From Patescibacteria group bacterium (lineage in GTDB: Bacteria; Patescibacteriota; Microgenomatia; UBA10105; UBA927), in the NCBI GenBank assembly GCA_049322955.1, contig JBMOPU010000012.1, forward strand, positions 311,032 to 375,031: DNA of 64,000 bases, written 5' to 3'. Below the pieces are notes generated by a model. That model saw only the letters and a list, made by a program, of their open reading frames with translations, was not told the origin of the DNA and searched no databases. Shown one piece after another: positions 29,609-57,199 of the stretch. The number at the start of each line of letters is the position of its first letter. The first letter of the stretch is position 1. A program made the translations under genes and the position numbers.

Positions 29609-30349
29609 TTATCGTACCAGACGGCGCTTTGTGAGGGATTCCACCAATCTGATGGAACCTACGGAGAGGAAAAAAAGCAGTATGTTAAGAAGCGCCACGT
29701 ATCCTAGGATAGTACCCGTAGAGCGTAAAAATTGCGTGACCGCGAACAGCGTAATTTCCGTGAGATTAATGCGAATACCGATAAGAAAGAGCGCAATACT
29801 CACGAGGGCAAGTACCCCGACTACCGGCCAAAATCCTTCCAGGTCTTCGGGCGAAGAAAACATAGTATTGGAGACTGCGAAAAACGCGTATCCCATAAGC
29901 ACAAAGAGATACACGCCGTAACTCGTCAAAAGTATGCCGTTTTGCGCATCAAGAGCTACCTGCTCCCATACGCCGGGAAGAAAATACGAAAGTAATCCCA
30001 GAATGCCCAGTCCCACGAATACGGGAGCAATACCGATGATTGCCCGACGGATCGGATCGGATTGGGCGATTGATACACTCCCTGTCCGCACATTTTTTTC
30101 TTCGATACCCTCGGGAACAAGAGTTAACCCGCTTGTTCGAACGCCCAGTATTTCTGCGGTAAAAAGATGGGCAAGTTCATGAATGACCGTACCCGGAAAA
30201 AATATAATGGACAGAAATCCTACGGCGACGGGACGCGATTTGGTGAGGAGAAATGCCGCAATAAACAGGTTTTGGGTGAGTTTGCGGGAAAGGATGTAGA
30301 GTCCGATAAGTTCAACGCAAATGATGACGATAAAAACGATCATAGCCAT
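29609..30349 (-). CDS. Integral-membrane HExxH zinc metalloprotease-like protein
   Basis: Polytopic; HELAH motif within a TM-flanked segment (VIHELAHLFTAEILG), reminiscent of M50/site-2-protease-like enzymes. Confidence 0.55.
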   Translation of the reverse strand: MAMIVFIVIICVELIGLYILSRKLTQNLFIAAFLLTKSRPVAVGFLSIIFFPGTVIHELAHLFTAEILGVRTSGLTLVPEGIEEKNVRTGSVSIAQSDPIRRAIIGIAPVFVGLGILGLLSYFLPGVWEQVALDAQNGILLTSYGVYLFVLMGYAFFAVSNTMFSSPEDLEGFWPVVGVLALVSIALFLIGIRINLTEITLFAVTQFLRSTGTILGYVALLNILLFFLSVGSIRLVESLTKRRLVR

Positions 30350-33709: not shown

Positions 33710-34843
33710 ATGCCCGAAGCTGTCGTTGGTGCCACTACATCGGATATTACTCATCAGCAAAAAACCAAAGAGGGATCACTGACTATTGAGTATCATACCC
33801 ACGATTCGATCGCCAATACGATCGGACATATCCTTGCTGTTCCCACCGTTCATACATTGTTGTGGACATGGGACAGCGCGTTTAAAAATCCTCCGAAAGA
33901 ATTGGCGGATCAACTGTTTGATCGGTATAAGGATGTGCCGTGGAAAGGCGACGTGCTGGTGCGGGTAGGGCATGCGTCCATCATCGGCGATATGCAACGT
34001 GCGCTTGCCCGGAACGAATCCGTACGGGGAAGACCCTGGCGTCTTAAAGATATTCCGGGAAGAGTTGCCGAAACATTCGGCAAACTGGGAATAGCGTTTT
34101 TTACTTTTTTCTCGACCGCGGCGGCAAAGTTTTTGCGTACCGACTTTTATAACCCCTATGCAAACGTCGCCACGGTGTATCATCCGAAGCTCGGTGTCGG
34201 CATGCATGAATTGGGGCACGCGGAGTTTTTTAATCAACGGGATAACGTAAGCAGGGTGGGACTCCTCATCATGGATTGGTTGGGATTGAATGTGGGCAAA
34301 GATATCGTGGTGCCGGTCCCTTTTTTCCGCTCATTTACTGAATACAAAGCAAGTCAGATTGCTATGCAACGGTTTAAAACGGACGAAGAGCGGCGTGAGG
34401 GGTTGAAGATACTCGAAGGTGCATGGGCAACTTACCTGTTCAGCGATGTTTTGAGTTTATCCTTTTTACCCAAACCGGTGACCGAGGCTATCGGATCCGT
34501 CTTATCGTATCCCGCATCGGTCGCGGGACACCTGATGAATAGACTGTATCCAAAAAAAGACCAGCGGTTCAGCTATATATTTTCCGGCAAAGCCGGATCC
34601 GGCTTTGCCGGAGAGGGGAATGTGGGGTTACAACATAATCAGCCCGTAGAAAAGAAGAGGGTATCCAAAAAGCCTGCAGTACCCGATCTCTCGGCGCATC
34701 AGGTACTTGTTGCGACCGCAAAAGCGCCCTCATCGGGCAAGGAGACTGCCGTAGAAGGCAAAGGGGGACGTCAGTTTAGTGACGAACCGTTAAAAAACGG
34801 CAAACGCCCGCTTCATAGTAACACCCACCGCATCACCTTTTAG
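33710..34843 (+). CDS. Zincin-like HExxH metallopeptidase-like protein
   Basis: VGMHELGHAEFF (HExxH); C-terminal tail ...LHSNTHRITF is shared with the next ORF. Confidence 0.5.
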   Translation: MPEAVVGATTSDITHQQKTKEGSLTIEYHTHDSIANTIGHILAVPTVHTLLWTWDSAFKNPPKELADQLFDRYKDVPWKGDVLVRVGHASIIGDMQRALARNESVRGRPWRLKDIPGRVAETFGKLGIAFFTFFSTAAAKFLRTDFYNPYANVATVYHPKLGVGMHELGHAEFFNQRDNVSRVGLLIMDWLGLNVGKDIVVPVPFFRSFTEYKASQIAMQRFKTDEERREGLKILEGAWATYLFSDVLSLSFLPKPVTEAIGSVLSYPASVAGHLMNRLYPKKDQRFSYIFSGKAGSGFAGEGNVGLQHNQPVEKKRVSKKPAVPDLSAHQVLVATAKAPSSGKETAVEGKGGRQFSDEPLKNGKRPLHSNTHRITF

Positions 34844-35282: not shown

Positions 35283-38200
35283 ATGACTGAAATGGTATAC
35301 AATAGCGCTATGAGCAAGATCATCGCGCGTTGGCTTCGTGCGCATATCGGTTTGGTCTTTCTGGTCGGATTTCTTTTTTGGATCACCGTTACCGGTCTTC
35401 AGCCTGATTTCCTGCTTATCGGATGGGATAATTATTCTTCATATCTGGGTGGCACCGACGGGATTTTTCGTACGATTTTTTCTACCTGGCGTGCTTATCG
35501 GGGGATCGGAGTGCCGGGAGATAGTGAGAGTACTGACGCGGTGCGGCAGATTCTCCTTTTTGCGTTGACTCCCTTTGTCACGGAGCCCATGCGGGACCAG
35601 GTATATATCATGGCATGCTTATGGGTGGGCGTGCTCTCCCTCTATGTGCTTGTAAAGCGTTTGGCGGGTCGTTATATCGAGGCAAACGAAGGTGCGATAG
35701 ATATCGCGGCGGCCTTTTCCGGATTTATGTATGCCGCCAATCTCAACACTATATCCACATTCTATTTTCCGATAATTACGTACATCACGCGCTATGCATC
35801 GATACCCCTTCTTGTACTGGTGTTTGATAAGGTACTGCATGACCGACCGCTTGGGATACGGACAATTGCATTCTTTATTGGGGCGGTATTGTTTTCTGCG
35901 GGAAGCTTTATTACCGCTACGGTATTTTTTACGACCGGCATCCTATTAGGGCTGTATGTGCTATTTCAGGGTGCAGGCAGGCGCGGGTTCCTTTTGTTTT
36001 TTGTATTTGTCTGTCTTAATGCGTTTTGGCTCGTGCCCTTTGCCAACTATACACGGGAAAAATCAGCGAGCCTCAGGCTTGCACCGGTGTTTATTGACAC
36101 CAACGAAGCACAGCTGAACCAATCACCCCAATCGTACAGCCTGTGGAAACAGCTCATTTTGTATCCTAATTTTTTCTACACCCGTTATACAAGGGTGAGT
36201 GACGAACGGAGTGCTCCCTTATTTCCCCTCACGGAATATATTGATAGCGTTCAGGGGCAGACGGTTTTGGGCGTTTTTCCGGCGATAGCGCTTCTTGGGG
36301 TGGGGCTGATATTTCTTGCGAAGAGAAAGTATTACAGGATATTTTGGATTCCCGCAACATATTTGTTATTTATTATACTCTCATCGCAGGAACAATCCCC
36401 GTTGGGATTTATTCCCGCACTTTTAAACAAGATTCCTTACTTTAAGGTGGTATTCCGGTTCGGCGATACCAAGTTCCATCCGTATATCGCTTTTGCGGGG
36501 AGTTTAGCAGTCGGCGTCTTTACAGTGCTTACTCTTCGTGGCGTACGACATATTCGTCGGGCGGCAACCACTCTCTCTGCAGTGCTTGGGATATTTCTTG
36601 TGGTAGTCCCTCTGGTGTCGGTGTATCGCACGTATTTGACCGGGGATTTTCTTCCGAAATATCTGATGGTGCAGTTGCCGCAGGCATACCGCACTGCGGC
36701 AACACGTATCGACAACGATCCTGCAAACGGGCGAGTACTGCACTTGCCGTATGATCCTCAACTGTATTGGCGTTCGCATACCTGGGGATATATGGGCTCG
36801 GCATTTGTCCAATATATGCTCAAAAATCCGTATTTGGACAAAACATTTGAGCCGGCAAGTCTGGAAACAACCGGTATGTTTTTGGAATTGTCCTCGATCA
36901 TCCGGGATGCAAACCAAGTGGTGGGGGAAGCATTGGAAAAACGTGCGGATGCGCTTTTGGCGCATTTGATTCGTCACCGGATTTCCTGGGTCATGTTTGA
37001 TGAGTCGGTGAGTCCTGAAATGCGGATACGGAATATGCGCTATTGGGGGTCATTTAATACGACCGACTCGTCAATACTTCTCGAAACGCTTGCATCCGCC
37101 GGCAAGGTTACCCGTGCGGCGGAATACCCGATTGATCTCGAGCCGATTGCAAAAGAGTACACAAGACTCCTCGGACAGCAACCGCAAGGACCACTCGGGA
37201 AGCCACGATTGATTTTGTATCGCGTGAATGACAACATGACGACGGTAGAATTTACCGATAGCGCAGTTGCCGCCGTTCCTTCGACTGCGGGAGTGATCCC
37301 TGCCGCCAACAATGCGGTAACCCTCCAACCGAGTGTTGATTCTGATACATTATTATATCCATTGTTATACAAAGACTTAGTCGTGGAACCCCGTAAAGAG
37401 GGGATGCAATTGGCACATCCGACCGATTTTCTCTCCGCAGGAACCGGTAACATGCTGACGGTAGCGTCGGGGTCGGGTGCCGCGGTTGAAATCCGTATGA
37501 AGAAGGAAGGAGAAAACGCTCTTCTCACGTTTTACAAAATCGAAGCTCCGAATATCGGAGTCCGTTCATTTTCAACCCTTCTTACTGCCGTTCGTTTGCC
37601 GCTCCGGCTTCTCAGAGATGCTCTTGAGGTAGCGAATGATGCGGGGATGTATCTTTCAGACTGGCATATTCTCGGACATGACAGATTGAGCGATATCCGC
37701 CTCATGATCGGCGATGTCGTGCTTCCTGTGCCGGTATTGACGAGTGAGGAAGAGCAGGTAGTCGGATCGGTATATCTGCCGTCGTCCTCGGTAAATGTGA
37801 CGGTACTGCGCCGCAACAAGCAGGTTGCGATGAATTTGTCGGCATTGCATCTTACCGATATGCCGAATTGTTTCGGTGATCGAACCGGCGGGTATGAGTA
37901 TGAGGTGACGGGTACGCAATCAGGTCAGCTGACCCTGAGAAGTCAGAACGGATCTACCTGTCTTGTGTACCCCGTTTCCGACGGAAATGCAAAACACGTC
38001 GAAATCCGTTTGGAGTATCGTGCAAATCAGGTGAATGAAACCGTAGATAACCCCGGTGCAGTTCCCCAAGTGGCAAACTATGTGTCGCAATTGACGAAAC
38101 CGAACCTATTAAGCCTCTGTATCGGTGTACAAACAGGGGATATGTGTCTGAACAAACATCAGATCCTGTCGATGGGGAATGAAGGTACGGTAGTTATTCC

Positions 38201-39305
38201 CTCGGAAATAACCGGTCAGCAGTTCACTCATTTACGGATGGCAACGGTGCCCGTCGGCAAACAAACGCAGGAACTCACCCTTACCGGAGGGATGCTCTCG
38301 TATTTTGATGCGGTTAGGGTTTTTGCAGTGACGGTACCCCAACGGGCATACACTGCCGAGATTACACCGGCGGGTGATAATTTCCATGTCACCATTCCGC
38401 CGCTCCTTTCGTCGGGATCGTATTATCGAAGCGCCGCTGACGGTTGGTTTGTGTCCAATCGTCCCTGCGAGACGAGTGGCGGCTATCGGACGACGCGGCG
38501 ACTGTCGGGTGGCATGCTGAGTTATATCGCTGATTGCTACAATGAATTTTCACTCCAATTGCCGTTTAACAGCGCATCGGCAAAATTATGGTCGGTTTCG
38601 TACGCACTCTTTTCAGGAAAGTATCCGTTATTCATGCTTGGCGACCCGTTCGGGCATTACGTGAACCAGTACCTTTCGTTGTATCAGGGATACCCGGAGG
38701 TGCCGGGAATGCTTTCGCTCCAGGCACCACAGCAATGGTACCGACCCTATGCCGGGGATACCGTGCAGAGCATCGTACGCGGAACGATTCCTGCTCAGGC
38801 GTATGTTTTGGTTCCTGCCGTACCCGAACTTACCGATACTCGTGCCAAATCCTATACGATCCATCAGGATAGCAAAAATACGGGGATGGTGGGGTTATAT
38901 GACACCCGCATTACGGAGTTTCCCGCTTCGTGGCACCACATGGCGGTGCAACGAGGAAATCCGGAGAAGACGTATGCGGTGCCGGGTTCCGTTACATCCC
39001 GCGATATCTTGCCGTCTTTGACCGAAGTGACTCTCGCGAAGGGTACCAATGCAGATAACTCCTTTTTATTGGTACAGCGTTCGGGATTTGACCGACAATG
39101 GGCCGCGTACAGAGATGTATGGTCCCTCATCGTTGATAGCAACGCGATCCGTCCCGTCCGATGCGGGGGTACCTTTAACTGTTATGCGCTTCCGTCAGAT
39201 AGCGGCCGATGGTACCTGTTTTATACCCCGGAACGTTTGGCAATCATCGGCTGGCTTGTCACCATTTTGAGCGCCGCCATTTTTGCATACAAGTGGCGCA
39301 GATAG
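35283..39305 (+). CDS. Giant polytopic membrane protein with a large extracytoplasmic C-terminal domain (GT-C-like glycosyltransferase candidate)
   Basis: About 12 predicted TM helices in the first ~450 aa, an ~850-aa soluble region, and a final C-terminal TM (IIGWLVTILSAAIFAY); the architecture resembles GT-C/YfhO/ArnT-type transferases. Confidence 0.65.
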   Translation: MTEMVYNSAMSKIIARWLRAHIGLVFLVGFLFWITVTGLQPDFLLIGWDNYSSYLGGTDGIFRTIFSTWRAYRGIGVPGDSESTDAVRQILLFALTPFVTEPMRDQVYIMACLWVGVLSLYVLVKRLAGRYIEANEGAIDIAAAFSGFMYAANLNTISTFYFPIITYITRYASIPLLVLVFDKVLHDRPLGIRTIAFFIGAVLFSAGSFITATVFFTTGILLGLYVLFQGAGRRGFLLFFVFVCLNAFWLVPFANYTREKSASLRLAPVFIDTNEAQLNQSPQSYSLWKQLILYPNFFYTRYTRVSDERSAPLFPLTEYIDSVQGQTVLGVFPAIALLGVGLIFLAKRKYYRIFWIPATYLLFIILSSQEQSPLGFIPALLNKIPYFKVVFRFGDTKFHPYIAFAGSLAVGVFTVLTLRGVRHIRRAATTLSAVLGIFLVVVPLVSVYRTYLTGDFLPKYLMVQLPQAYRTAATRIDNDPANGRVLHLPYDPQLYWRSHTWGYMGSAFVQYMLKNPYLDKTFEPASLETTGMFLELSSIIRDANQVVGEALEKRADALLAHLIRHRISWVMFDESVSPEMRIRNMRYWGSFNTTDSSILLETLASAGKVTRAAEYPIDLEPIAKEYTRLLGQQPQGPLGKPRLILYRVNDNMTTVEFTDSAVAAVPSTAGVIPAANNAVTLQPSVDSDTLLYPLLYKDLVVEPRKEGMQLAHPTDFLSAGTGNMLTVASGSGAAVEIRMKKEGENALLTFYKIEAPNIGVRSFSTLLTAVRLPLRLLRDALEVANDAGMYLSDWHILGHDRLSDIRLMIGDVVLPVPVLTSEEEQVVGSVYLPSSSVNVTVLRRNKQVAMNLSALHLTDMPNCFGDRTGGYEYEVTGTQSGQLTLRSQNGSTCLVYPVSDGNAKHVEIRLEYRANQVNETVDNPGAVPQVANYVSQLTKPNLLSLCIGVQTGDMCLNKHQILSMGNEGTVVIPSEITGQQFTHLRMATVPVGKQTQELTLTGGMLSYFDAVRVFAVTVPQRAYTAEITPAGDNFHVTIPPLLSSGSYYRSAADGWFVSNRPCETSGGYRTTRRLSGGMLSYIADCYNEFSLQLPFNSASAKLWSVSYALFSGKYPLFMLGDPFGHYVNQYLSLYQGYPEVPGMLSLQAPQQWYRPYAGDTVQSIVRGTIPAQAYVLVPAVPELTDTRAKSYTIHQDSKNTGMVGLYDTRITEFPASWHHMAVQRGNPEKTYAVPGSVTSRDILPSLTEVTLAKGTNADNSFLLVQRSGFDRQWAAYRDVWSLIVDSNAIRPVRCGGTFNCYALPSDSGRWYLFYTPERLAIIGWLVTILSAAIFAYKWRR

Positions 39306-40147
39306 TCCCGCTGTTCAAGCGAAAACGCGATGACACGCTTCATGACGCGGTAAAAGTCCCAGATAAACTCCGGAGGCAACATCATGCTCGCCATGTACTG
39401 GATAATCCAGTACAGGTGGATATACCACGGTGCCTTTTCGATATACGTATCCGTCCAGTTATGCATGGCAAACGTCGCTTCCGCGAGTTTGCGGAAATGT
39501 TTCCATGACGCGGCATTTTTATGCCATCGGACGTTGACGAGCGGCCGCTGGATGTTGGCAAGTTTGCCGTACTGGGCGATCCGATACCACAAATGCGTGT
39601 CGTCCGCCGGCCAAAATGCCTGCAGGTATCCGCCCGCTTTTATGGCGATTTTTTTTCGATACATGACGGTGGGATCAGCGAACGGACTGACGATATACCA
39701 CAGTTTGCGGATCTGGGCGTCGGTTTTTAAGAATTTGACGATCTGCTCGCTCCCGTCATCCGTGAACAATCGTATCCATGATCCGACCGCCGCCACGTCT
39801 TTGTGTTTCTCAAGATATTCAACCTCGGTGGCAATCCGGTGAGGTAACATGAGATCGTCCTGGTTCAGGCGGCAGATGTATTCTCCTTTGGCTTTTTCGA
39901 GCGCAAAATTGAGTACCCGCGACAACCCCCGGTTCTGGGGGAATTGGTAGAACCGTACGCGCTGATATTTCTTTTCCAGCGCCCTACAGATTCTGCGGCT
40001 GTGATCGGAACTGCCGTCATCGACGAGCAGGACTTCAAAGTTTTGATAAGTACTTTTAAACACGCTTTGCACCGCCGCCTCCAGATAGGGGGCGCCGTTA
40101 AAGACCGGAATCACCACCGACACGGTCGGTTTCGGATACTTTTTCAT
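39221..40147 (-). CDS. GT2-family glycosyltransferase (polyprenyl-phosphate sugar synthase-like)
   Basis: VSVVIPVFNGAPYLEAAVQSVFKSTYQNFEVLLVDDGSSDHS...LNQDDL (DxD); start MKKYPKP at 40147 with SD AAAGGAG 7 nt upstream; 3' end overlaps the convergent giant gene by about 85 bp. Confidence 0.85.
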   Translation of the reverse strand: MKKYPKPTVSVVIPVFNGAPYLEAAVQSVFKSTYQNFEVLLVDDGSSDHSRRICRALEKKYQRVRFYQFPQNRGLSRVLNFALEKAKGEYICRLNQDDLMLPHRIATEVEYLEKHKDVAAVGSWIRLFTDDGSEQIVKFLKTDAQIRKLWYIVSPFADPTVMYRKKIAIKAGGYLQAFWPADDTHLWYRIAQYGKLANIQRPLVNVRWHKNAASWKHFRKLAEATFAMHNWTDTYIEKAPWYIHLYWIIQYMASMMLPPEFIWDFYRVMKRVIAFSLEQRDYLRHLYAKMAALKMVTSQPMIAKRSGV

Positions 40148-40381
40148 AGGTACTCCTTTCTTTCTATGATGATTCATAGATTGAGTTTTGTACTCCCTGC
40201 GCCCCCGAAAGTGTCTCTCGGGAGAGCGGGGAGAGGCATACAGGAATGACACACAAGTGTCATTGAGCTATTGCTCATATGGTCTCTCCTGGTTATGTAG
40301 CGGTCTCCAAAAAGGAGTCCACTCAATAACCGTAAAAGAGGCTCTGCGCAAGCGCAGAGCCTCTCTTTATATTAGCGTGGG

Positions 40382-41725
40382 TCAGTCCCACCAGTCGAAA
40401 TCGTCAGCAGGGCTGAACGCATCCTTCACGGTGAAAACTGCCCAGTCGGCTGAAAATTCGGTCACGCTGTCTTCCATGACGAAATACAGCACGCGGTACC
40501 CGCCGAGCGTATTGAGTTCGGTGATTTTCATCAGGTTCGGGTCGGTCACACCGGCGCTTGTCACGATGAACGTGTTCCACTTGGTTTCGTGGGTGCCGCG
40601 TTCATACACGACGCTGGGAAGCAGTCCGAGCATTTCGAACAGCTTGGCGCTTCGGTTGTCCGTGATGTACTTTTCGAATTCCGCGTTGGACATCGGCTTG
40701 AGTGACTCGGTGCCTGCTTTTGCCGTGGTTTTTGCTTCCGTCAGGTTGCTATACCCGGGGTATGCATGGCAGAGTTTGACGCCAGAGAACGGGTGGTACA
40801 CGTTGAGCGAGCCGGTGCGGCGTGCGATGTACAGCGACTTGCCATCTGCACGCGTTATTTCAGCCCAGCCGGTGCCGACTTGTCCCGTCTGCGTCCACAC
40901 GAGCGTCTTGCCCGCGACTGCGTGAACGGTAGCATCCCAGCCCCAGGCGAAGCGAGCATCAGCATTCAGGTTGACGTCATCGTCGAGGAGCGCGAAGAGT
41001 TCCTCCGTGCCCATGTTATCCTGAATTTGCTTGGTGACCTTGCTGGAATTTTCGCAAGCCTCGGCTTCGATGTTGCCCTTGACCAGCATGGGAGTTCCCT
41101 TGCGTGGCTCTGTCTCGCCGGTCCAGTTTTTGAGCGTGATGTATGCGAGACCGGTTTTAACCGTCTCTGTGCTGTTGGGTGGCAGGAGGTAAATGCCAGT
41201 GTCGCCTTCGACGCAGAACTTCACGATTTTTCCACCGTGGGTCGGGTCGGCGTCACGATAATTACCGGTCCAGAACAGCACAACCTCATCAGCCTTGGTC
41301 TTGAGCGTTCCGCCGTTTTCCCAGCGCACCGGATTCTTCGGATAGACGTAGAGTGTGTCCAGCCGGTTGGTGTAGATGGCGTGGTAGTCTGGCGCGCATC
41401 CGGTCAGGAACTGTGCGGCGTATTCCCATTGGGTAGTATCCAACACGGACCCGAAGGGCTTGGTTTCGACAGGTTCATCCAACAGGTCGAGAGCCTCGGC
41501 CCGTTCCAGAATGAACTCGGTTGACACGCTGGTATATCCGTCGACATTGAATGTCGGCGGCGCATCATCAGCCTGAGCGGCGACGATGACCCACATGGGT
41601 GGCGTCCAGTCCGCGGGCGGCTGGTTGGATTGGGCAGACACGCTGGTAGGCGCGAATGCCGCGAAAAGCAGGCTCAACGTCATGAAAAGCACGAAGAGCG
41701 TGTAGGGATTGCGTTTTGTACGCAT
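40382..41725 (-). CDS. Secreted hypothetical protein (signal peptide)
   Basis: N-terminus MRTKRNPYTLFVLFMTLSLLFAAFAPTSVSAQS; GC3-rich codon usage unlike neighbouring genes. Confidence 0.6.
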   Translation of the reverse strand: MRTKRNPYTLFVLFMTLSLLFAAFAPTSVSAQSNQPPADWTPPMWVIVAAQADDAPPTFNVDGYTSVSTEFILERAEALDLLDEPVETKPFGSVLDTTQWEYAAQFLTGCAPDYHAIYTNRLDTLYVYPKNPVRWENGGTLKTKADEVVLFWTGNYRDADPTHGGKIVKFCVEGDTGIYLLPPNSTETVKTGLAYITLKNWTGETEPRKGTPMLVKGNIEAEACENSSKVTKQIQDNMGTEELFALLDDDVNLNADARFAWGWDATVHAVAGKTLVWTQTGQVGTGWAEITRADGKSLYIARRTGSLNVYHPFSGVKLCHAYPGYSNLTEAKTTAKAGTESLKPMSNAEFEKYITDNRSAKLFEMLGLLPSVVYERGTHETKWNTFIVTSAGVTDPNLMKITELNTLGGYRVLYFVMEDSVTEFSADWAVFTVKDAFSPADDFDWWD

Positions 41726-43323: not shown

Positions 43324-44796
43324 TTACTTCAGCCAGGCTTCCGCTGAAACAGTGAACTCGCCGACGGTATATTCGAGGCTTACGACACTCGAGTTCATGA
43401 CTGCGCGAAGCACGTCATTCGTAGCGGTTTTTTCAGCGTGCCCTGCGGCGATGCTGGTGCCCGTGAGCGTGAATGTCGGGGTGCCATAGGCTCCCGGATT
43501 GTCGATGAGCACGGCGTACATGCCGTTGTTGCCGACGCGGTCAAGCGTGATGAGCAGTTGACCGTAGGCGCCCGGAATGACCAGCGTGTCGACAGGCTCG
43601 TCTTGATAGGTCAAGCCTTTCGCACAGTACGGCGTGCCGAGCAACGGACCAGTGACGGTGTATGTCACATCTTGGTCGTTGTTACTGCAGGACACCGTGC
43701 TTGTGCTTACCGGCACTTCGCCTGTCACCGTCATATTGATGGTCGGTGTAATGGTCGGGCGTGGTGTGCGGGTCGCTGTTGCAGGCGGCGTGTTGGTCGG
43801 CGTGGGCGGAAGCAGATGGTGCTCGTCGAATTCCGCAAGCGGCATGATATTGCCAATTGCGTGGTCGCCGCTCCAGAACAGTTCGACCTCGTTGTAGCCT
43901 TCTGCATACACGTTTACCTGTGAGAACATCCACTTCCACATCTTCCGCACTTGTGCGGGTGTAATTGATGTTTGCTGTACCGCATCTTCCGTTCCGTAAT
44001 AAATCGGGAACGACGCGCGGTCAGTGGTCGGGCATGGCGAAAACATGGAGTTCACCACGAACACGATGGTGCGCACCGTTGAGCCCTTGCAAGTGAATGT
44101 TTCGATGGCGCCGTATTGGTAGGTCACCAATTGGTTGTCGGTGAGTTCGTCCCAGTCTTCGGCGGGCATGAACGTACCCATCGGCACATCCTGCTCCTTG
44201 TAGTCAATGGTGACCGTGAACGGTAAGTTCTGGTAGATGGGCGCCGGTGACTCGTCAAGCGTCGCATAGTAATACTGGAAGCCCTTCGGCGCGATGCTCA
44301 GCAGGTCGTCGGCATTCGCCCCGACAAAATACTGGAATTCGCTGACGGCTTCTTCAACATCTATCGTGACATCCGTCGGGATGCGCCACGTGATGTAGGT
44401 GCCTTTCAGGAATTGTACGGTCATGCGGTCGTCAATGAAGCCGAGGGTGAAATACCCATCATGCTTCACGAGAATGACTTCCCTGTAGGCTTCCGTGTTA
44501 TGGCGTGTCCCTTCCGGGTCGTGCGAGTTCTCATCGAACGTGCGTCCGAGGAATTCGACAGCCCCACCGTCAAAGAACAACGGGTCTATTTTTTTGAGTT
44601 CTTCAAGACCCGGGTTCGGAATTTCGGTTGCGGTGGGTGAGTTGGTCGGTGACGGCGCGATGGTCGACGTTTTGGTCGGCTGGTTGGTTGCGGTTGCAGG
44701 CGCGGTCGCGGTGGCGGTCGGTTGACTTCCACATGCGGCGAGCACCATTGATGCAACGACGAGCAGGCTCAAAAGAGCCCAAAGTCTCTTGGACAT
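43324..44796 (-). CDS. Lipoprotein with Pro/Thr-rich linkers
   Basis: Signal plus lipobox MSKRLWALLSLLVVASMVLAACGS; PT linkers (TATATAPATATNQPTKTSTIAPSPTNSPTAT; PPTPTNTPPATATRTPRPTITPT); GC-rich. Confidence 0.65.
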   Translation of the reverse strand: MSKRLWALLSLLVVASMVLAACGSQPTATATAPATATNQPTKTSTIAPSPTNSPTATEIPNPGLEELKKIDPLFFDGGAVEFLGRTFDENSHDPEGTRHNTEAYREVILVKHDGYFTLGFIDDRMTVQFLKGTYITWRIPTDVTIDVEEAVSEFQYFVGANADDLLSIAPKGFQYYYATLDESPAPIYQNLPFTVTIDYKEQDVPMGTFMPAEDWDELTDNQLVTYQYGAIETFTCKGSTVRTIVFVVNSMFSPCPTTDRASFPIYYGTEDAVQQTSITPAQVRKMWKWMFSQVNVYAEGYNEVELFWSGDHAIGNIMPLAEFDEHHLLPPTPTNTPPATATRTPRPTITPTINMTVTGEVPVSTSTVSCSNNDQDVTYTVTGPLLGTPYCAKGLTYQDEPVDTLVIPGAYGQLLITLDRVGNNGMYAVLIDNPGAYGTPTFTLTGTSIAAGHAEKTATNDVLRAVMNSSVVSLEYTVGEFTVSAEAWLK

Positions 44797-45590: not shown

Positions 45591-46253
45591 TCAGGGCCGA
45601 ATAGCTCCTTTTGCAAGAATCCCAAACCCAATGATAGCCAAAGCGATAAAGGGGAGCATATATGCGTAGTCTTCAAATCCCGCGACCGGAAGGGTGGTGG
45701 CACCCAATACTTTGGTTTGGACACACAAGCTGGACGTATCTTCATCAGATCGATTTTCCGGTGCCGTGACCGTAACCTTGTTAACCACATCACAGGTAAG
45801 ATCCTGAGGGAATACCGAGATATCCTTCACCTTCACTAGAATTCGGTTATGTACGGTGGCACCCGCCTTGAGATCAGAGATTTCATACGTAAGCTTGTGT
45901 GCACTTGCCTCATATCGTCCGGGACCTGAGACAAACAAGACCTGAGACGGTAAAAAGTCAATGATGGTCACCGTCGCATAGTCAGTGGTACTGGTATTGG
46001 TAACGGCGATGTCGTACTCCACTTCACTGTTGGGTGAATACGCGGCATCGTAGGCCGTCAGATTTTCAACAAACAGATTAACATTGGTGGGGTATCGCAC
46101 CTTTTTATTGATAACAACGTTGTTTGTCGGACATTCTACCGAGGTTCCGTATTGGTTCGTGCAGTTTTCGCCGTCATAGGCATGTACGGCGGGCACAAGG
46201 AGCGCCATGGCGCCGAGAAGCGAAACAAGTGCGATAGTGTGTTTTGATTTCAT
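45591..46253 (-). CDS. Surface protein with DUF11-like domain and C-terminal sortase-type sorting signal
   Basis: Signal peptide MKSKHTIALVSLLGAMALLVPAVHA; DUF11-like block DIAVTNTSTTDYATVTIIDFLPSQVLFVSGPG; C-terminal LPVAG + hydrophobic stretch + KGAIRP tail. Confidence 0.65.
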   Translation of the reverse strand: MKSKHTIALVSLLGAMALLVPAVHAYDGENCTNQYGTSVECPTNNVVINKKVRYPTNVNLFVENLTAYDAAYSPNSEVEYDIAVTNTSTTDYATVTIIDFLPSQVLFVSGPGRYEASAHKLTYEISDLKAGATVHNRILVKVKDISVFPQDLTCDVVNKVTVTAPENRSDEDTSSLCVQTKVLGATTLPVAGFEDYAYMLPFIALAIIGFGILAKGAIRP

Positions 46254-47111: not shown

Positions 47112-47993
47112 TTAAATCGCCTCATTTTGTTCTTCCACCAAGTCAGCAAAAATCAGCAAACGCTCGGTAGTGGAGCCAGGAGGCCAACAGGTCTGTAAAA
47201 TGAGGCGTTTTTGGCCTGCCTGAGGAGCAAGATAGGATACTTCGGTGGGACTTACCACCTGCTTGCCGGTGATTTCATACCGATAGGAAGAGCCCTTGTA
47301 ATAGATAAGGATCGTATCCTTTACCTCAAGATTCTTCAAAAGGTAAAACACGGCATTCAAATCACCCACAAACCAGTCGTAATTGGTGGAGTGAGAAAAA
47401 AGATACACCGTACCCTCTTCGTCGGGGAAGTACGAGAGGGAAGAGTGGGCGATTCCTTTTTGGAGTGCGGCCAGATATTCGCCCGGTTTGGTGGGATTGA
47501 CCGCAGGAATAACCCCGGCGTTAATGCCCACCTTCGGCACGATCAGCGAAAAGTCTTTGTTGACGGGATCGATTGAAGCGCCTTCGGGCGTTTTGAGCGG
47601 GTCAAACGCCGCGGGAACTGCGGGTTTTTGGGTCGTTTCGGTAGCTATCTGCGTTCGGTCGGTCGGGAGCCATGTTCGAACGACGGAAATTACCCCGTCG
47701 AGATGCTGTACCAAGGCTTTCTGATAGGTTGGTAACGTTCGTTGTACCTGAAGTGCGGCATATCTTGCCTCAAGTCGAATACGCGGCGTTAAGGGGCCCG
47801 TAAGACCTCCCAGGGCAAGTGCAAGCATGCCGATACCGAGGGTGGTTACCCATGAGTGATTTGTCGTGTTTTTCGGTACGGCAACGGGCGACGGCGTACG
47901 ACGCAGTTTTGTGGTCGTTCGGGCGGGAGTAAGCACCGGAATACCGGGTCGGTAGTCCCAGTCGTGATAGTAGATGATGCCTGATGTTTGCAT
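47112..47993 (-). CDS. Sortase (class E/F-like transpeptidase)
   Basis: N-terminal TM; catalytic motifs LFSHSTNYDW (His), RLILQTCWPPGST (TLxTC Cys), conserved Arg downstream. Confidence 0.8.
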   Translation of the reverse strand: MQTSGIIYYHDWDYRPGIPVLTPARTTTKLRRTPSPVAVPKNTTNHSWVTTLGIGMLALALGGLTGPLTPRIRLEARYAALQVQRTLPTYQKALVQHLDGVISVVRTWLPTDRTQIATETTQKPAVPAAFDPLKTPEGASIDPVNKDFSLIVPKVGINAGVIPAVNPTKPGEYLAALQKGIAHSSLSYFPDEEGTVYLFSHSTNYDWFVGDLNAVFYLLKNLEVKDTILIYYKGSSYRYEITGKQVVSPTEVSYLAPQAGQKRLILQTCWPPGSTTERLLIFADLVEEQNEAI

Positions 47994-51379: not shown

Positions 51380-54300
51380 TTATGACGATTGTTTTTTGGC
51401 AAACGTTACCTGAAGTTTGTCGCCGACCACATCGATACGGCTTGCTTTCCACTTTTGGTCGATACGACCGTCAAGATGGGTCAATACTAAGTCGTTAAAG
51501 TGATCCAAGCTTTCATGAATGGTTTTTTGCCATGGGCGCGCGAGCATAGGCAGATGAATATTCAGGCTGTCTTTTTGCACCACGAGACCCTTTGCGGGAT
51601 CGGTTGCGAGGGTACCGCTAAACTTTGCCTCTCCCACGATCGTTTTTGCCTTCATATCGGCAAGTTTGACCGTGTCGCCTTCGATCATGATTTTTCCTTC
51701 GGTAATTCTGGCACCGGGAAGCTCCACCGAAGTTTTGACGTAATCCATGAGTTCTCCCGGAGTCAATGCTACTCCTGCGGCATTTTCTCCCGATTTATTT
51801 AACACATAGTTGATGCGGTCTTCGACGCCGCTCGGGAGTTGCTCCGGTGCGGGGGTGGGTTGTTCGGCGGTAACGGGTGTTTCAATAACAGGCGTTTCCT
51901 CGATCGGGAGTGATGATGCAACCGCTTCTGCAGATTTCTCCGATTGTTGTATATTTGCGGTTTCCTGCATGGTAGGTGTTTCAGATTGAACCGTGTTTTC
52001 TGCGGCGGCAATCCCCGTTGTTGTTGGTGCTTCTTCAATGACCGGTTGCTCAACCGGTTGTTCTCCCGCAAGCGTCGTTAGCTCATCTCTTGGTGTTTCC
52101 GGAACCGGTTGGGTTGCCTCAACGATTTTCGGTGCGGCTTCTTTGGCAAATGCCTCGACATCAGTGAGTGCCCGCATATTTGCTTCCAGCATGTTCATGT
52201 CAGTTATTATGACCTGTCCGTCGGTGATTTCATAGGATATCCCCAAGGTATCCATCGTTCGCTTAAAGTAGGCATCAAACCGTTCGGGATTGGTGGTTTT
52301 CAGCGTGGGATACATATTGGCGTACATGTTGGAAAGATGCGTCTGTAACTGATCCTTTGAATAGGTTTCACTTGCCCGTTTTGCCATATCTTCCCAGGTC
52401 ATATCTTTATAAACCTCATTTGTCTGATACGGAGTCTCGGGATCAGCACTTCCAAGCTGTTGCAAATGCGCGTAGACGGTTTCGGTTGGATCGATGGTGG
52501 CCGTCATGGTAGGTAGTACCGTGGTGGTATCGCTACTGCCGCGCGCCGTATGAATCATCCATGCCATCTCACGATCCTCCGCAATCCTGGTGTCGGGGTT
52601 ATATCCGCCGACGGCCGCGAGACTTCCCGCTTTTGTGGCAATATTACCGCTATAAACCCCCGGAACACCTGCGGTATCCCCATGGCGAACCAGACTATCC
52701 ATCAATTCAAATGCCCGATGCTGGGCAAAAAGAAGCGGGAACTCTTCATAGGCTTTTTGGGGAAGCTCATAACTTCCGCTCACCATATCCAGTGACGGAT
52801 TCTGATCAAATGCATCTACGGCACTTGCGATATACGTCTCGGCGATGGTGTTGCCTGTGCCGTTATCGGCGATGACGGCAACATCGGAAGCATCGGTGGG
52901 AAGTGTTGCGATACGGGACAGGGCAACATTTGTTACATCCCGTTTCACCCGACCTGACGTGGGTGCTTCCTGATAGGAATGGGTAAGATATAAGACGCGC
53001 ATTTCCGGATGGTCTGCGATAAACCTCGTAACTTCCGATTTTGTATCGCCGGGAAGCGTCTCACTGACGGTGCCGTCGGGGGAGGCGACGTGCGCGTCAA
53101 AGACGATAAATTCCGTTTTTTCAGGAGCAAGCGGCGTGCCGTCGGTTGCCTTTTGTCCGACATACCGTGATAAGCGCTGGTAAATATTGCCGCCTGCCTG
53201 TGATACGGGAATCGTCACCACTGCGCGAACATCGGGGTTCATCGGGGGTAAGTCACCCGTCAGTAATTGTTCGACTGTAGTAATTTCGTCGGGAGTGAGC
53301 GTCGAAAGATACCAGGCCACTTCTTCCTGCTGGTGTAATGTTGCCTGCGGATTTTCCGTAAGCCGCGGGGATTTTCGGGTTTCCATGGATTCCCGGGTCA
53401 CATAGGAACTTTCCATACCGAATGGGCTTAAAAGCGTCTCGCCCGGTTTCATTTTTGCTTCGATAATTTCTCCGGTAGCCGCTTCGAGTACTTCACGATA
53501 CGGGATAAATACGGGGTACCAAGGTGCCTCCGGTGCCCCCGCTTCGCGGGCAATAGTAGTTACCGTCTCGGTAACGGGAACGGTGAGTTCTTTGGCAAAA
53601 ATTTGTCCCGGTTGATCTTCTCCGTAGACATAATTCAGCGTAAGCTGGTGAATCGGCACCGATGTTTCTGCCGCCGAAGGCACGACCGTATGAACGGTCT
53701 GCTCTGCATTACTCGCGCCGAGTTTCTCAAGAAGCGGAGCGAGTTCCTGTTGGGTAGGAAGGTCGCTATCCCGTCCGAAATAGCCCATGCGCAGTAACAA
53801 CGCTTCCACCTTATCGTCCTGTGATCCCGTTTCCAGCGTATGAAGCGCTTCCATCGGGGCTTTGCCGCTTTCGATGAGCGATTGGTAATGCGTGATTGCC
53901 GCATCATTCATTTCGCTGATGTGTTTTATGGCATCCGCGCTAAACAGTTCCCGCGGTACGTGAATGGTGGCATCCTGAGGAATCCTGGCCAAATCCAATT
54001 CCTGTACCTGGGTGTCGCCGAAGGTTGCCGGTCGCAGATGTTCGTTTATGTAGTTTTCGTGACTGCCCTCCGGAACCGTAATATTGGCGTTATGCTCGTT
54101 ATAGGTGTACAGGCGAAACATGTTTTTAACGCTGTTTGCCGTAGCGATTCTGTTATCACCCTCCGCTTGGTTTAAGAAATGATCCCATAATCCGCCTTCC
54201 TTGAGGTTGGACGCTTTGATGTCGATCATGGGCCCCGTCGGGGAGCTCGTCTCAACAAATGGTGCCGTCGTATTCGATTCAAGCGCAACCGTGTGATGGA

Positions 54301-57199
54301 GCGGTGTGGTTATCTCATACCCCTGTTTGGCCAGATCTGCTTTCAAATTGGCAATATCGACGGGTTGCCCCAGTAATTCTCCCTTATCGGAAATATTAAC
54401 GGTGGCGATCACGTGATCTTTGGTATCGAGAATTTGCCAGTTATGTGCGCTTTCAATGTATTTCATGTCATAGCCGTCAGGAAGCGATGCCGTGATCGGT
54501 GTGCCGTTTGGCGCGGTAAGATGAGGGATCTGCACCACATCGTGAGCACTGGTGATAACCTCTCCCGCTTTGTGCGGCTCGGAGACCGTCATCCCCAGTT
54601 TTTCCAGCGTCGACTTGAGCTGTTCGTCAGTGAGATTTGTGCCGATGACATGATCCGATTGCCCGTTAACGTTTTCGGCAAGAGAAAGATCAATTTTCGC
54701 GTCATACAATGTTTGTCCGTTCTCGACGTGCTGAGTAAGCGTTAGCTCTTTCGGAATCTGGTACGTCGCATGATCTAAGGTAACGGTGTGTTCCGCCGTC
54801 GGCGTGGAAAGCGGAATCTTGGCGACGTGTTCTGTTGTTTCCGTGGTTGCGTGCACCTCGCCCAAACTGCCTAATGCGTGTAATGTGCCGCCGATGGCCG
54901 CGCCTATGACGCCCGCTTTGACGCCGTATTTAACGGCCTCAATGCGCGCCTCGCTTTTGAACTCCTCCATAATCGCATCAAGCCCCATGGCTTTCTGTTC
55001 GTCGGTGAGCGATGCTCCCGCAAAAGGCCAACGTCGCTTTATGATTGCCGCCTCCGGTGCATACGATGCCACAAGATTGAGCGTCGCTTTAATCGGATCG
55101 TCCTGTGATTCCAGCGCGTTCACTCCTTCACGAAGTATCTGCGTTTGACCGGTGGTCAGTTTGACCATGAAATCGGGGAATGCATTGCCTCCGAGTACTC
55201 CCTCCGCCTGTTCGGCATGACCGGATAAATAGGTTTCGAGGTCTCCTAACGCTTTGTTTGCGGTGATATCGAGTGCCGCCCGTTCACTTTCGATAGCCTC
55301 CCTATTTGAAAATCGGATGAGACCGACACGTTTTGGACCCGTTTCACTGACCGCTTTTCTTGCGTGGAGATCAGCCACGGTCGCAAACGCACTGCGGAGT
55401 TCATCGTCCGTCAGGGTCGCTTTGATCTGATCGCCGTCGTATAGAGTGGACTTGAGCGTCGTTATCATTTCGGATGCAGAGCGTTGTTGTACGGCAAATT
55501 TTTCAAACCATGCGCGTTTCTTCTGTGCTTCGGTAAATGTCGCTCCCGATTCCTTTTCACGAAGGTGAGTCAAATAGTCACGGTGCAATTGTCCGTATTC
55601 GCGCCATCCGGCAAATGCTCCTCCCGCGGCGCTTCCCGTAAGAAGTGCCAACGGTCCCACTCGAAACGGCATGGTTTTGACAAAGTTAAGTGCTGAAAGT
55701 GCGATAGCGACGCCCGAACCGATGGTCGCTTCGTTAAAGACCAGGGGAACCAAGACATGCTTCTTATTCAGCCAATCTGCTATTTCGCGAATCTGTCCGA
55801 CGCCTTTTTCGACGGCGGTCGGTTCCATGCTCGTGACTTCTCCCATGGCGCCCAGTCCCAGCCGGATTTGCATGCTATCTATCGCCTCGTCCAAATTGGC
55901 GAGTCCGCCTTCGTGAGACATCTTTGTGCGGAGGGTTTCTGCCGCATCAAAAAGACTCGAACTATATAGTTCTGCTTCAGCAAAAATATCAGGGCGGGTA
56001 TTTTTTAGCGTCGCATTGAAGAATTCTTTTGCTCGTTTGTCGAATTCTTCTTTGGTCGTAATGCCGCCGCTTGCGTACTCTTTGAGTAACGATTGTATGC
56101 CGGAAACAAGGGGAGCATGATCGGCGTTTTCCGGGTCCAATATCTCCAATTTTTCGCCGAGTTGCTTTCTGATAAACTGATCCGCCTTTTCCATGTCGGC
56201 ACCGAATCGCATGCGTACCGCTTTGGCTTCCCGTTCAAATGTTTCCCGGCCTTTGATTTCTCCGGCGGCTTTCATGGCGCCCATTTCTTCAAGTGCCATT
56301 GTTTGTACTGCGGTTCGCATCCCTAACTTGTCTTTCAGCCAGTCCACCGCACGGGTTCCCGCGCGAACAAGGAAGTTGGAATCGGCGAGTTTTTTATCGT
56401 ATGCGGCTTTGGCTCTCGCTTCTGCGAGACGGATCGCGTCTTCGGCAAACGGTGTTTCGGCCGCAATCAGGAGATCATGGTAATATTGCCGGGCTTTTTC
56501 ATGGAAATAAATACCCCCGACGGATTGTTTCCAGATAGTGGTAAAGATCAGTTCATGGAGCCCGTGCACGGAATCCTTGGTTTTTTCCCATAACGTTTTC
56601 GTCGCATCCGCGTGTTCTTGCGAACGGGGAGTGACCATTTTTTGCATGCTCCGGTCGGCAAGATCAACCGCGCGTGTTTCGTAGGCCTTAAGACCCACGA
56701 TCGTTATCGTGTTGGGATCTTCGGTAAGGCTCTCTAACACGTTTCTTGCCTCTTTTGTGGGCAATACGGGGGGAGTTTCCGGAAGGGTAAGTTTGGGTTC
56801 GGGTGCTATCGGTTCGACCGCTTGTTCTCCCGGTACTTCCGCAAAAGGTGTTAAGGATAGCTCGCTTTTGCCGATGACATGATTGGCGCCCGTTTCATCG
56901 GTCCATTGGAGACCGGAAATTTTATCCCACGATACTTCGTCAAAATCGTTGAGATTCGTAAGCGGCTTATCGACCATGAGCCCTTCTTCACCCTTTTTGC
57001 GACTTGCTTCCGAAACAAGCGGCACGATGCTTCCTACGCCGTCATTGGCGCGCTTTTCAGCCGGCAGAACGGTCACCGAGGTGATCTCCTGTTCACCGAT
57101 CTTAACGGGAGTGGCAAGATGAATCGGCGTTTCTCCCACGATGACCGACTGCGGGAGCAGTGTTTCCGGATGCGGTTGTTGAGGAATCGGTTCGGTCAT
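51380..57199 (-). CDS. Giant (1939 aa) hypothetical membrane-associated protein
   Basis: Single continuous ORF; hydrophobic segments near residues ~480-560 and ~790-820 (ATIGSGVAIALSALNF; VKAGVIGAAIGGTLHALG); the remainder is charged/Ala-rich helical; a weak GT-A-like ...GGYNPDTRIAEDREMAWMI block near the C-terminal third; last gene of a co-directional operon. Confidence 0.7.
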   Translation of the reverse strand: MTEPIPQQPHPETLLPQSVIVGETPIHLATPVKIGEQEITSVTVLPAEKRANDGVGSIVPLVSEASRKKGEEGLMVDKPLTNLNDFDEVSWDKISGLQWTDETGANHVIGKSELSLTPFAEVPGEQAVEPIAPEPKLTLPETPPVLPTKEARNVLESLTEDPNTITIVGLKAYETRAVDLADRSMQKMVTPRSQEHADATKTLWEKTKDSVHGLHELIFTTIWKQSVGGIYFHEKARQYYHDLLIAAETPFAEDAIRLAEARAKAAYDKKLADSNFLVRAGTRAVDWLKDKLGMRTAVQTMALEEMGAMKAAGEIKGRETFEREAKAVRMRFGADMEKADQFIRKQLGEKLEILDPENADHAPLVSGIQSLLKEYASGGITTKEEFDKRAKEFFNATLKNTRPDIFAEAELYSSSLFDAAETLRTKMSHEGGLANLDEAIDSMQIRLGLGAMGEVTSMEPTAVEKGVGQIREIADWLNKKHVLVPLVFNEATIGSGVAIALSALNFVKTMPFRVGPLALLTGSAAGGAFAGWREYGQLHRDYLTHLREKESGATFTEAQKKRAWFEKFAVQQRSASEMITTLKSTLYDGDQIKATLTDDELRSAFATVADLHARKAVSETGPKRVGLIRFSNREAIESERAALDITANKALGDLETYLSGHAEQAEGVLGGNAFPDFMVKLTTGQTQILREGVNALESQDDPIKATLNLVASYAPEAAIIKRRWPFAGASLTDEQKAMGLDAIMEEFKSEARIEAVKYGVKAGVIGAAIGGTLHALGSLGEVHATTETTEHVAKIPLSTPTAEHTVTLDHATYQIPKELTLTQHVENGQTLYDAKIDLSLAENVNGQSDHVIGTNLTDEQLKSTLEKLGMTVSEPHKAGEVITSAHDVVQIPHLTAPNGTPITASLPDGYDMKYIESAHNWQILDTKDHVIATVNISDKGELLGQPVDIANLKADLAKQGYEITTPLHHTVALESNTTAPFVETSSPTGPMIDIKASNLKEGGLWDHFLNQAEGDNRIATANSVKNMFRLYTYNEHNANITVPEGSHENYINEHLRPATFGDTQVQELDLARIPQDATIHVPRELFSADAIKHISEMNDAAITHYQSLIESGKAPMEALHTLETGSQDDKVEALLLRMGYFGRDSDLPTQQELAPLLEKLGASNAEQTVHTVVPSAAETSVPIHQLTLNYVYGEDQPGQIFAKELTVPVTETVTTIAREAGAPEAPWYPVFIPYREVLEAATGEIIEAKMKPGETLLSPFGMESSYVTRESMETRKSPRLTENPQATLHQQEEVAWYLSTLTPDEITTVEQLLTGDLPPMNPDVRAVVTIPVSQAGGNIYQRLSRYVGQKATDGTPLAPEKTEFIVFDAHVASPDGTVSETLPGDTKSEVTRFIADHPEMRVLYLTHSYQEAPTSGRVKRDVTNVALSRIATLPTDASDVAVIADNGTGNTIAETYIASAVDAFDQNPSLDMVSGSYELPQKAYEEFPLLFAQHRAFELMDSLVRHGDTAGVPGVYSGNIATKAGSLAAVGGYNPDTRIAEDREMAWMIHTARGSSDTTTVLPTMTATIDPTETVYAHLQQLGSADPETPYQTNEVYKDMTWEDMAKRASETYSKDQLQTHLSNMYANMYPTLKTTNPERFDAYFKRTMDTLGISYEITDGQVIITDMNMLEANMRALTDVEAFAKEAAPKIVEATQPVPETPRDELTTLAGEQPVEQPVIEEAPTTTGIAAAENTVQSETPTMQETANIQQSEKSAEAVASSLPIEETPVIETPVTAEQPTPAPEQLPSGVEDRINYVLNKSGENAAGVALTPGELMDYVKTSVELPGARITEGKIMIEGDTVKLADMKAKTIVGEAKFSGTLATDPAKGLVVQKDSLNIHLPMLARPWQKTIHESLDHFNDLVLTHLDGRIDQKWKASRIDVVGDKLQVTFAKKQSS

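Follow-up and report, generated by a model that had tools for sequence, protein, structure and literature searches.

What do two convergent genes that share the last 85 bp of their coding sequences specify, and do their products act together at the cell surface? The question is raised by a locus of a Patescibacteria group bacterium of the Microgenomatia (assembly GCA_049322955.1, contig JBMOPU010000012.1, positions 311,032 to 375,031), analysed here as a stretch of 64,000 nucleotides that we call the window. The larger gene lies at 35283..39305 on the plus strand and encodes a membrane protein of 1340 amino acids (aa), while the gene that faces it, at 39221..40147 on the minus strand, encodes a family 2 glycosyltransferase (GT2) of 308 aa. 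A preliminary description had taken the two for a module of the Gtr/Arn type, in which polyprenyl phosphate is charged with a sugar by the GT2 and a GT-C enzyme transfers this sugar to surface proteins. We find that the large protein belongs to the AftD-like GT-C superfamily as a divergent member specific to Microgenomates and is not a new kind of enzyme, that it forms a conserved pair with the GT2, and that the most likely function of this pair is the synthesis or decoration of a surface glycopolymer.

The open reading frame (ORF) of the large protein begins with ATG, and it was judged to be a real gene, as originally described, from its 91 homologues and from confident AlphaFold2 (AF2) models. 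The homologues were collected in a word-indexed search; about 80 of them are full length (1300-1400 aa) and all are labelled hypothetical. A HMMER search with residues 1-640 returned 1182 cluster representatives at E<=1e-3, 186 of them at E<=1e-30. Among these are about 130 full-length clusters (50% identity) of a family almost confined to Microgenomates, and a second tier of proteins of 960-1250 aa with 27-30% identity, termed the sister subfamily below. Related loci, retrieved with a conserved FRFGDTKF motif of the large protein as pattern, are found closest by in metagenome-assembled genomes of Candidatus Gottesmanbacteria and more distantly in Roizmanbacteria, Shapirobacteria, WWE3 and other Patescibacteria.

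The structure of the large protein was modelled in two overlapping parts, residues 1-640 (pLDDT 92.7, pTM 0.94) and residues 560-1340 (pLDDT 92.1), the second of which consists mainly of beta-sandwiches followed by a terminal transmembrane (TM) helix. The "about 12 N-terminal TMs" proposed earlier come close to the result of hydropathy and the AF2 model, which place 11 TM helices between residues 22 and 445 and a further one at the C-terminus (~1317-1337). The 11-TM module (residues 1-445, 35283..36617, plus strand) carries the features that the AftD structural paper lists as GT-C hallmarks, namely a first loop with a conserved acidic residue and a pair of juxtamembrane helices behind TM1. TM1 spans residues 22-38, TM2 spans 101-132 and the helices from TM2 to TM11 reach residue 445; the first outer loop, between TM1 and TM2, holds two juxtamembrane helices (53-65 and 82-95), and further hallmarks are the kink in TM3, the long loop that follows TM7 and the alpha/beta soluble domain behind TM11. 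When the N-terminal model was compared with the PDB by Foldseek, all matches with a probability of ~0.4 or more were GT-C enzymes, among them AglB (E 6e-4), DPY19 (TM-score 0.43), EmbA/B, ArnT and ALG3, with probabilities of 0.8-1.0 and TM-scores of 0.25-0.43. The same search also gave many transporters of the major facilitator superfamily at E <1, which might suggest that the membrane domain is itself a transporter, but their probabilities stay at <=0.33 (mostly <0.2) with TM-scores of ~0.1, and the sole Pfam family matched by the large protein is PF11847, GT-C_AftD (formerly DUF3367). GT-C enzymes being the only credible matches, the domain has the GT-C fold, and the transporter reading, already refuted by these figures, deserves practically no credence.

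Structure and sequence both speak for a kinship with AftD. The best PDB match of the C-terminal model is AftD of Mycobacterium abscessus (6W98, E 5.5e-10), followed by proteins rich in carbohydrate-binding modules (CBMs): Vip3, the GH101 enzyme EngBF and a tandem CBM22. At the level of sequence the connection is transitive and runs through the sister subfamily: a profile of 24 of its sequences matches AftD 6w98 at E 7.5e-11, and the subfamily aligns with the large-protein family over 1129 columns at E 7e-113, while a single sister-subfamily protein (P0082) searched against the PDB sequences retrieved nothing. PF11847 is matched by 10 of the 33 family members in our alignment, at best with E 6e-7, and two of eight sister-subfamily members reach 26.8-28.9 bits against it; neither the window protein nor any of the 33 members matches the Pfam families PMT, PMT_2, YfhO or MIR at E<=0.01.

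AftD, 1381 aa long on average, has 11 TM helices at its N-terminus and a membrane segment at its C-terminus, together with a soluble GT-C domain and three CBMs. Given this shared layout, and with AftD as the top-ranking PDB match, the window protein is not "unusually large" for a GT-C enzyme, contrary to what had been proposed. The likeness to AftD (the Rv0236c/MAB_3191-type arabinofuranosyltransferase; PF11847, PDB 6W98) thus extends over a common length of ~1340-1380 aa, the 11-TM GT-C module with its two juxtamembrane helices and a conserved Asp close behind TM1, a loop with basic Arg/Lys residues ahead of TM10, the alpha/beta GT-C soluble domain with several CBM-like beta-sandwiches, and re-entry into the membrane at the C-terminus; homology at the level of sequence is indirect and becomes visible via the sister subfamily. 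The two differ in that AftD continues with TM12 and a four-helix bundle binding acyl carrier protein (TM12-16), whereas the large protein has one C-terminal TM helix, after which only 4-5 residues remain. They also differ in their setting, as the host here is a bacterium of the candidate phyla radiation (CPR) without arabinogalactan, no genes of the decaprenylphosphoryl-arabinose (DPA) pathway were seen in the window, and the partnership with an SpsA/EpsE-like GT2 that is conserved here is not described for aftD. According to the structural paper of 2019, AftD-type enzymes were found by PSI-BLAST only in Actinobacteria, and our search of the literature for DUF3367 proteins or GT-C enzymes of Patescibacteria brought up no relevant work.

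Two motifs of the membrane module mark a putative active site. The first, G47-W48-D49-N50 (35421..35432, plus strand), stands just after TM1; G47, D49 and N50 are invariant and W48 is conserved to at least 90% in the 33-sequence alignment, and all four are conserved to at least 90% in 91 sequences. By analogy with the mutagenesis data for AftD, D49 is a candidate catalytic or donor-binding Asp, the putative counterpart of AftD K39/D41. The second motif, F391-RFGDTK-F398 (36453..36476, plus strand), forms the loop between TM9 and TM10, where the PF11847 match begins; its R392 and K397 are invariant across the 91 sequences and are candidate phosphate-binding residues, comparable to R357/K361 of AftD. 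E275 is also invariant, and H487 likewise belongs to the conserved set. The extracytoplasmic region that follows (residues 446-1312, 36618..39218, plus strand), delimited by the AF2 model, Foldseek, conserved cysteines and the divergence profile, comprises ~870 residues and begins with the alpha/beta GT-C soluble domain, which is succeeded by several CBM-like beta-sandwich domains. It contains six invariant cysteines (C863, C893, C946, C955, C1062 and C1085), which would fit an extracytoplasmic location. The protein ends in a conserved FYxPERLxxxGW motif, the C-terminal TM anchor and a basic tail, KWRR (together residues 1313-1340, 39219..39305, plus strand), and in the profile alignment this end coincides with the AftD segment that leads into TM12.

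In 33 of ~40 non-redundant related loci, an orthologue of the window's GT2, termed type A, adjoins the large gene, and it is missing only at contig ends, plus one unclear case. The two genes are convergent in most loci and co-directional, with type A just upstream, in three; among five relatives looked up individually, a GT2 of ~300 aa faces the large gene in all five. The large gene and the GT2 are thus a conserved functional pair, and in this respect the first reading of the locus was right. In 12 related loci, although not in the window, the large gene is also adjoined by a gene for an ATPase of ~728 aa of the DUF87/TrwB type (a VirD4-like coupling protein), for example in the loci L002 (5829-7994, minus strand) and L006 (3884-6109, minus strand).

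The 85-bp overlap of the 3′ ends (39221..39305, both strands) is confirmed by the coordinates of the two ORFs and sets GT2 residues ~281-308 against residues 1313-1340 of the large protein. Convergent overlaps of >60 bp are rare and often turn out to be annotation errors, so that an error of assembly or a frameshift had to be considered for this one. The same convergent layout was found, however, in 27 independently assembled related loci, in 25 of which the genes overlap by 21-112 bp with both frames intact, while in the other two they are separated by gaps of 4 and 32 bp; because the pairing is conserved in independent loci, an assembly frameshift is excluded, and an artefact is as thoroughly refuted as the transporter reading.

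The overlap is therefore genuine, ancient and recurrent, and its lengths indicate how it arises. Two values prevail, 85 bp and 106-112 bp, and they correspond to the distance from a pair of Phe-Tyr codons to the stop codon of the large gene. In the window the stop codon of the GT2, TAA (39221-39223, minus strand), is the reverse complement of the letters TT|TA across F1313 (TTT) and Y1314 (TAT), and these two residues open the FYxPERLxxxGW motif at the start of the last TM helix, which is conserved with or without an overlap of the genes. Conservation of the GT2 core runs to about residue 280, the very point at which the large ORF ends. From there the GT2 frame reads on, antisense to the last TM helix, as far as the complement of the Phe-Tyr codons, where it meets a stop. 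In loci with no or barely any overlap, the GT2 stops right after the core, at 271-290 aa, and has no tail; since these enzymes lack it, the tail is dispensable. A weakly conserved 'QP....SG' pattern in the tail was considered as a functional element and rejected, as it mirrors the antisense of GW and PE and is gone where the genes do not overlap. The overlap is best explained as passive read-through in a tightly packed convergent pair, holding no functional element, and it illustrates how facing genes can come to overlap at length in a purely passive way, when a conserved motif of one gene ends the reading frame of the other.

What kind of enzyme is the conserved partner? Its ORF is open over 39221..40252 (minus strand) from a GTG codon, but the ATG at 40147, which gives the protein of 308 aa, is backed by a Shine-Dalgarno sequence (AAAGGAG, 40153..40159, minus strand, 5 nt upstream of this start, read directly from the sequence) and by the alignment with the N-termini of orthologues. 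A match to Pfam PF00535 (Glycos_transf_2, E 1e-35) bears out its description as a canonical GT2, and Pfam, NCBIfam and PDB searches together with the orthologues place it among GT-A enzymes resembling SpsA, chondroitin synthase, EpsE and TuaG. The best NCBIfam matches are EpsE (7e-31) and TuaG (8e-24); in the PDB search, the type A profile aligned with chondroitin synthase over positions 5-230 at E 7e-46 and also matched SpsA, heparosan synthase, TarS and PglI.

It is at this point that the Gtr/Arn reading meets its main difficulty. The GT-C fold and the conserved GT2 partner are both real, GT2s that charge polyprenyl phosphate also belong to PF00535, and one of the two proposed targets, a lipoprotein of 490 aa at 43324-44796, does have PT-rich linkers. 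The profile of the type A GT2, however, fits glycan-acting enzymes over the full catalytic domain and meets ArnC, DPMS and GtrB in the first ~100 residues only (E 6e-13 to 4e-9), and hydropathy reveals no C-terminal TM hairpin in it, only a moderately hydrophobic helix-Pro-Pro-helix segment; the assignment of this GT2 as a polyprenyl-phosphate loader of the GtrB/ArnC/DPMS type was accordingly given up. The large protein, as described above, has no Pfam match to PMT, YfhO or ArnT families. The GtrA-like flippase that was expected nearby did not appear either: hydropathy and Pfam scans of the 64 kb found neither a GtrA-like nor any other flippase candidate, none of the window's ORFs of <=200 aa contains as many as three hydrophobic segments, and its only polytopic proteins are Nramp, ComEC, a 6-TM HExxH protein and the GT-C enzyme itself. 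Neither the PT-linker lipoprotein nor the other proposed target, a collagen-like gene at the start of the window, recurs with the pair in related loci. What survives of the Gtr/Arn scheme is that a GT-C enzyme is encoded together with a GT2; with a GT2 of another type and no flippase, we consider the scheme as a whole quite improbable.

A GT2 with the properties expected of a loader does occur in the related loci. In 14 of them a second, shorter GT2 of 230-280 aa, termed type B, is encoded, either directly behind type A (L002, L012, L015 and L029) or just upstream of the large gene (L014, L016 and L032); examples lie at 12856-13611 in L002, 12871-13635 in L015, 6482-7297 in L014 and 7024-7851 in L016. 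The type B profile matches DPMS (E 8e-38), ArnC (9e-34) and GtrB (6e-31) over the full catalytic domain, which makes type B a plausible polyprenyl-phosphate-sugar synthase and counts further against this role for its type A neighbour. Neither a type B homologue nor any second GT2 is present in the whole 64-kb window.

The three-component systems GtrA/GtrB/GtrC, ArnC/ArnE-F/ArnT and CsbB/GtcA/YfhO and the GT136 pentofuranose systems share with our loci a GT-C enzyme that acts outside the cell and is encoded with one or more GT2s, and, in the 14 loci just mentioned, a DPMS/ArnC/GtrB-like GT2 in the cluster. They differ from them in that the conserved partner here is not of the polyprenyl-phosphate-sugar synthase type and in that the window has neither flippase nor donor synthase. 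In mycobacterial arabinogalactan synthesis, the GT2s GlfT1 and GlfT2 build the galactan inside the cell, and GT-C enzymes of the Emb and Aft families add arabinan outside. The pair studied here may resemble this arrangement, with a cytoplasmic GT2 working on a lipid-linked glycan and a CBM-bearing GT-C enzyme outside the membrane, although the type A GT2 has no specific sequence relationship to the GlfT enzymes.

AftD is a GT-C enzyme of the cytoplasmic membrane, where a polyprenyl-phosphate-linked sugar at the outer face is transferred to a glycan held by the CBM-like array. With this as a guide, we propose with moderate confidence that the pair consists of an AftD-like GT-C enzyme and a glycan-building GT2, with the lipid-linked donor supplied by a separate DPMS-like GT2. 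The type A enzyme, cytoplasmic and dependent on nucleotide sugars, would most likely help to build a lipid-linked glycan, and the GT-C enzyme would extend or decorate that glycan outside the cell. The sugar for this second step would come from a polyprenyl-phosphate donor made by a different, short GT2 of the DPMS/ArnC type, which about a third of the related genomes encode within this cluster and which in the present one would have to be encoded elsewhere. What the sequences and models show directly is the fold, the homology, the architecture, the constant pairing and how the overlap arises; the donor, the acceptor and the part played by each enzyme are inferred.

Several observations weigh against this proposal. 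The PF11847 match of the window protein itself, at 18.1 bits (E 7e-4), lies under the gathering threshold of 26 bits; the family profile searched against PDB sequences yielded noise only, with no direct match to AftD; AftD is not among the top 50 Foldseek matches of the N-terminal model; and the TM-scores to solved GT-C structures are modest (0.34-0.43). The pathway is moreover incomplete as seen, for the window contains no donor synthase, no flippase and no priming phosphoglycosyltransferase, and Pfam scans of it turned up no UbiA-type or DprE-type genes. Finally, the strictly conserved partner is type A and not a DPMS-like enzyme, so that type A might possibly make the donor itself in some unrecognised way.

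As to the acceptor, the CBM-like ectodomain favours a glycan over a protein, because the CBMs of AftD, of the Emb proteins and of GT136 enzymes bind the acceptor polysaccharide. One surface protein nevertheless deserves attention as a possible associate of the pair. At 45591..46253 (minus strand) the window encodes a DUF11/CLIPPER protein of 220 aa, recognised by its Pfam match, which has a signal peptide and, besides an LPVAG sorting signal, a TM segment and a basic tail. Of 40 loci, 20 encode an orthologue of ~220 aa with a (L/V)PxxG signal no more than 8 kb from the pair, at a distance of 1-7 kb from the GT2; loci of a distant subfamily and rearranged loci are among them, and no other surface protein recurs near the pair; a sortase is encoded nearby in six loci, the window among them (47112-47993, minus strand). 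From this one could suppose that the pair glycosylates a sortase-dependent, pilin-like DUF11 protein, the beta-sandwiches holding either the protein or the growing glycan. The DUF11 gene, however, is never immediately adjacent to the pair, the intervening genes vary, the protein has no Ser/Thr-rich linker, and the ectodomain finds its best structural matches in carbohydrate-binding modules and in AftD, an enzyme with glycan-binding CBMs. What is observed is an association, which may reflect a real functional link or merely a gene order conserved by inheritance among Microgenomates, and we regard the DUF11 protein as an unlikely target.

The divergence between close relatives adds a further aspect. 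Compared with the nearest distinct relative (locus L001), the GT2 is 97% identical with a dS (synonymous substitutions per synonymous site) of ~0.14, while the large protein is only 63% identical, and 46% in residues 601-1050, its fastest-evolving part, with synonymous sites saturated. A secreted protein of 447 aa encoded on the other side of the GT2 (40382-41725, minus strand) is 43% identical; dS exceeds 1.5 in its gene and in most of the large gene (35283-38400, plus strand), whereas the other neighbours are 92-95% identical with dS of 0.27-0.93. The locus is thus a mosaic, with surface-exposed proteins present as deeply divergent alleles next to a nearly identical GT2. Positive selection on the large protein was considered and rejected as unproven, given the saturated synonymous sites and a dN/dS (ratio of nonsynonymous to synonymous rates) well below 1. 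The serotype-specific GtrC enzymes offer a parallel, as there too the gene for the GT-C enzyme changes much more quickly than the GT2 gene beside it (here 63% against 97% identity). We give a small chance to a bolder extension, by which the pair, with a DPMS-like GT2 encoded elsewhere, would form the core of an undescribed, Microgenomates-specific surface-glycan system, the fast-evolving and recombining ectodomain setting a glycan that differs between strains, is perhaps carried by the cell wall or by the DUF11 protein, and would act as a serotype-like determinant.

The remainder of the window encodes LeuRS, ArgRS, LepA, enzymes of the arginine pathway, ComEC, the sortase and many proteins without family assignment, and scans for tRNA and Rfam families found no feature in its 64 kb. 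A perfect, GC-rich hairpin with a 12-bp stem (40337-40364), a likely terminator, separates the end of the 447-aa gene from the region upstream of the GT2. The collagen-like gene runs off the start of the window, where the first ~2000 positions have 67% GC and tandem repeats of 9, 18 and 45 nt; a plus-strand frame gives PVAPVGP repeats there, and the minus strand would read as collagen-like Gly-X-Thr repeats. Two further proteins have a metalloprotease-like look, no Pfam match and a conserved counterpart in L001: the 6-TM protein at 29609-30349 (minus strand), with a HELAH motif, and a protein of 377 aa at 33710-34843 (plus strand), with a HELGH motif. Directly after the genes for argininosuccinate lyase and synthase stand two tandem paralogues of the ornithine/aspartate carbamoyltransferase family (12515-13507 and 13512-14474, both plus strand), and an ORF of 1939 aa at 51380-57199 (minus strand) has no significant Pfam match.

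The large protein and its homologues represent a full-length, very distant branch of AftD in Microgenomates, CPR bacteria whose envelopes are almost uncharacterised, and the ~130 clusters of the family, all labelled 'hypothetical', thereby gain an annotation that can be tested. The conserved pair points to a surface-glycan pathway of two or three enzymes in organisms that live attached to other cells. If the bolder extension of this reading were true, a strain-specific glycan would serve these episymbiotic bacteria as a serotype-like determinant for attachment to the host or for evasion of phages.

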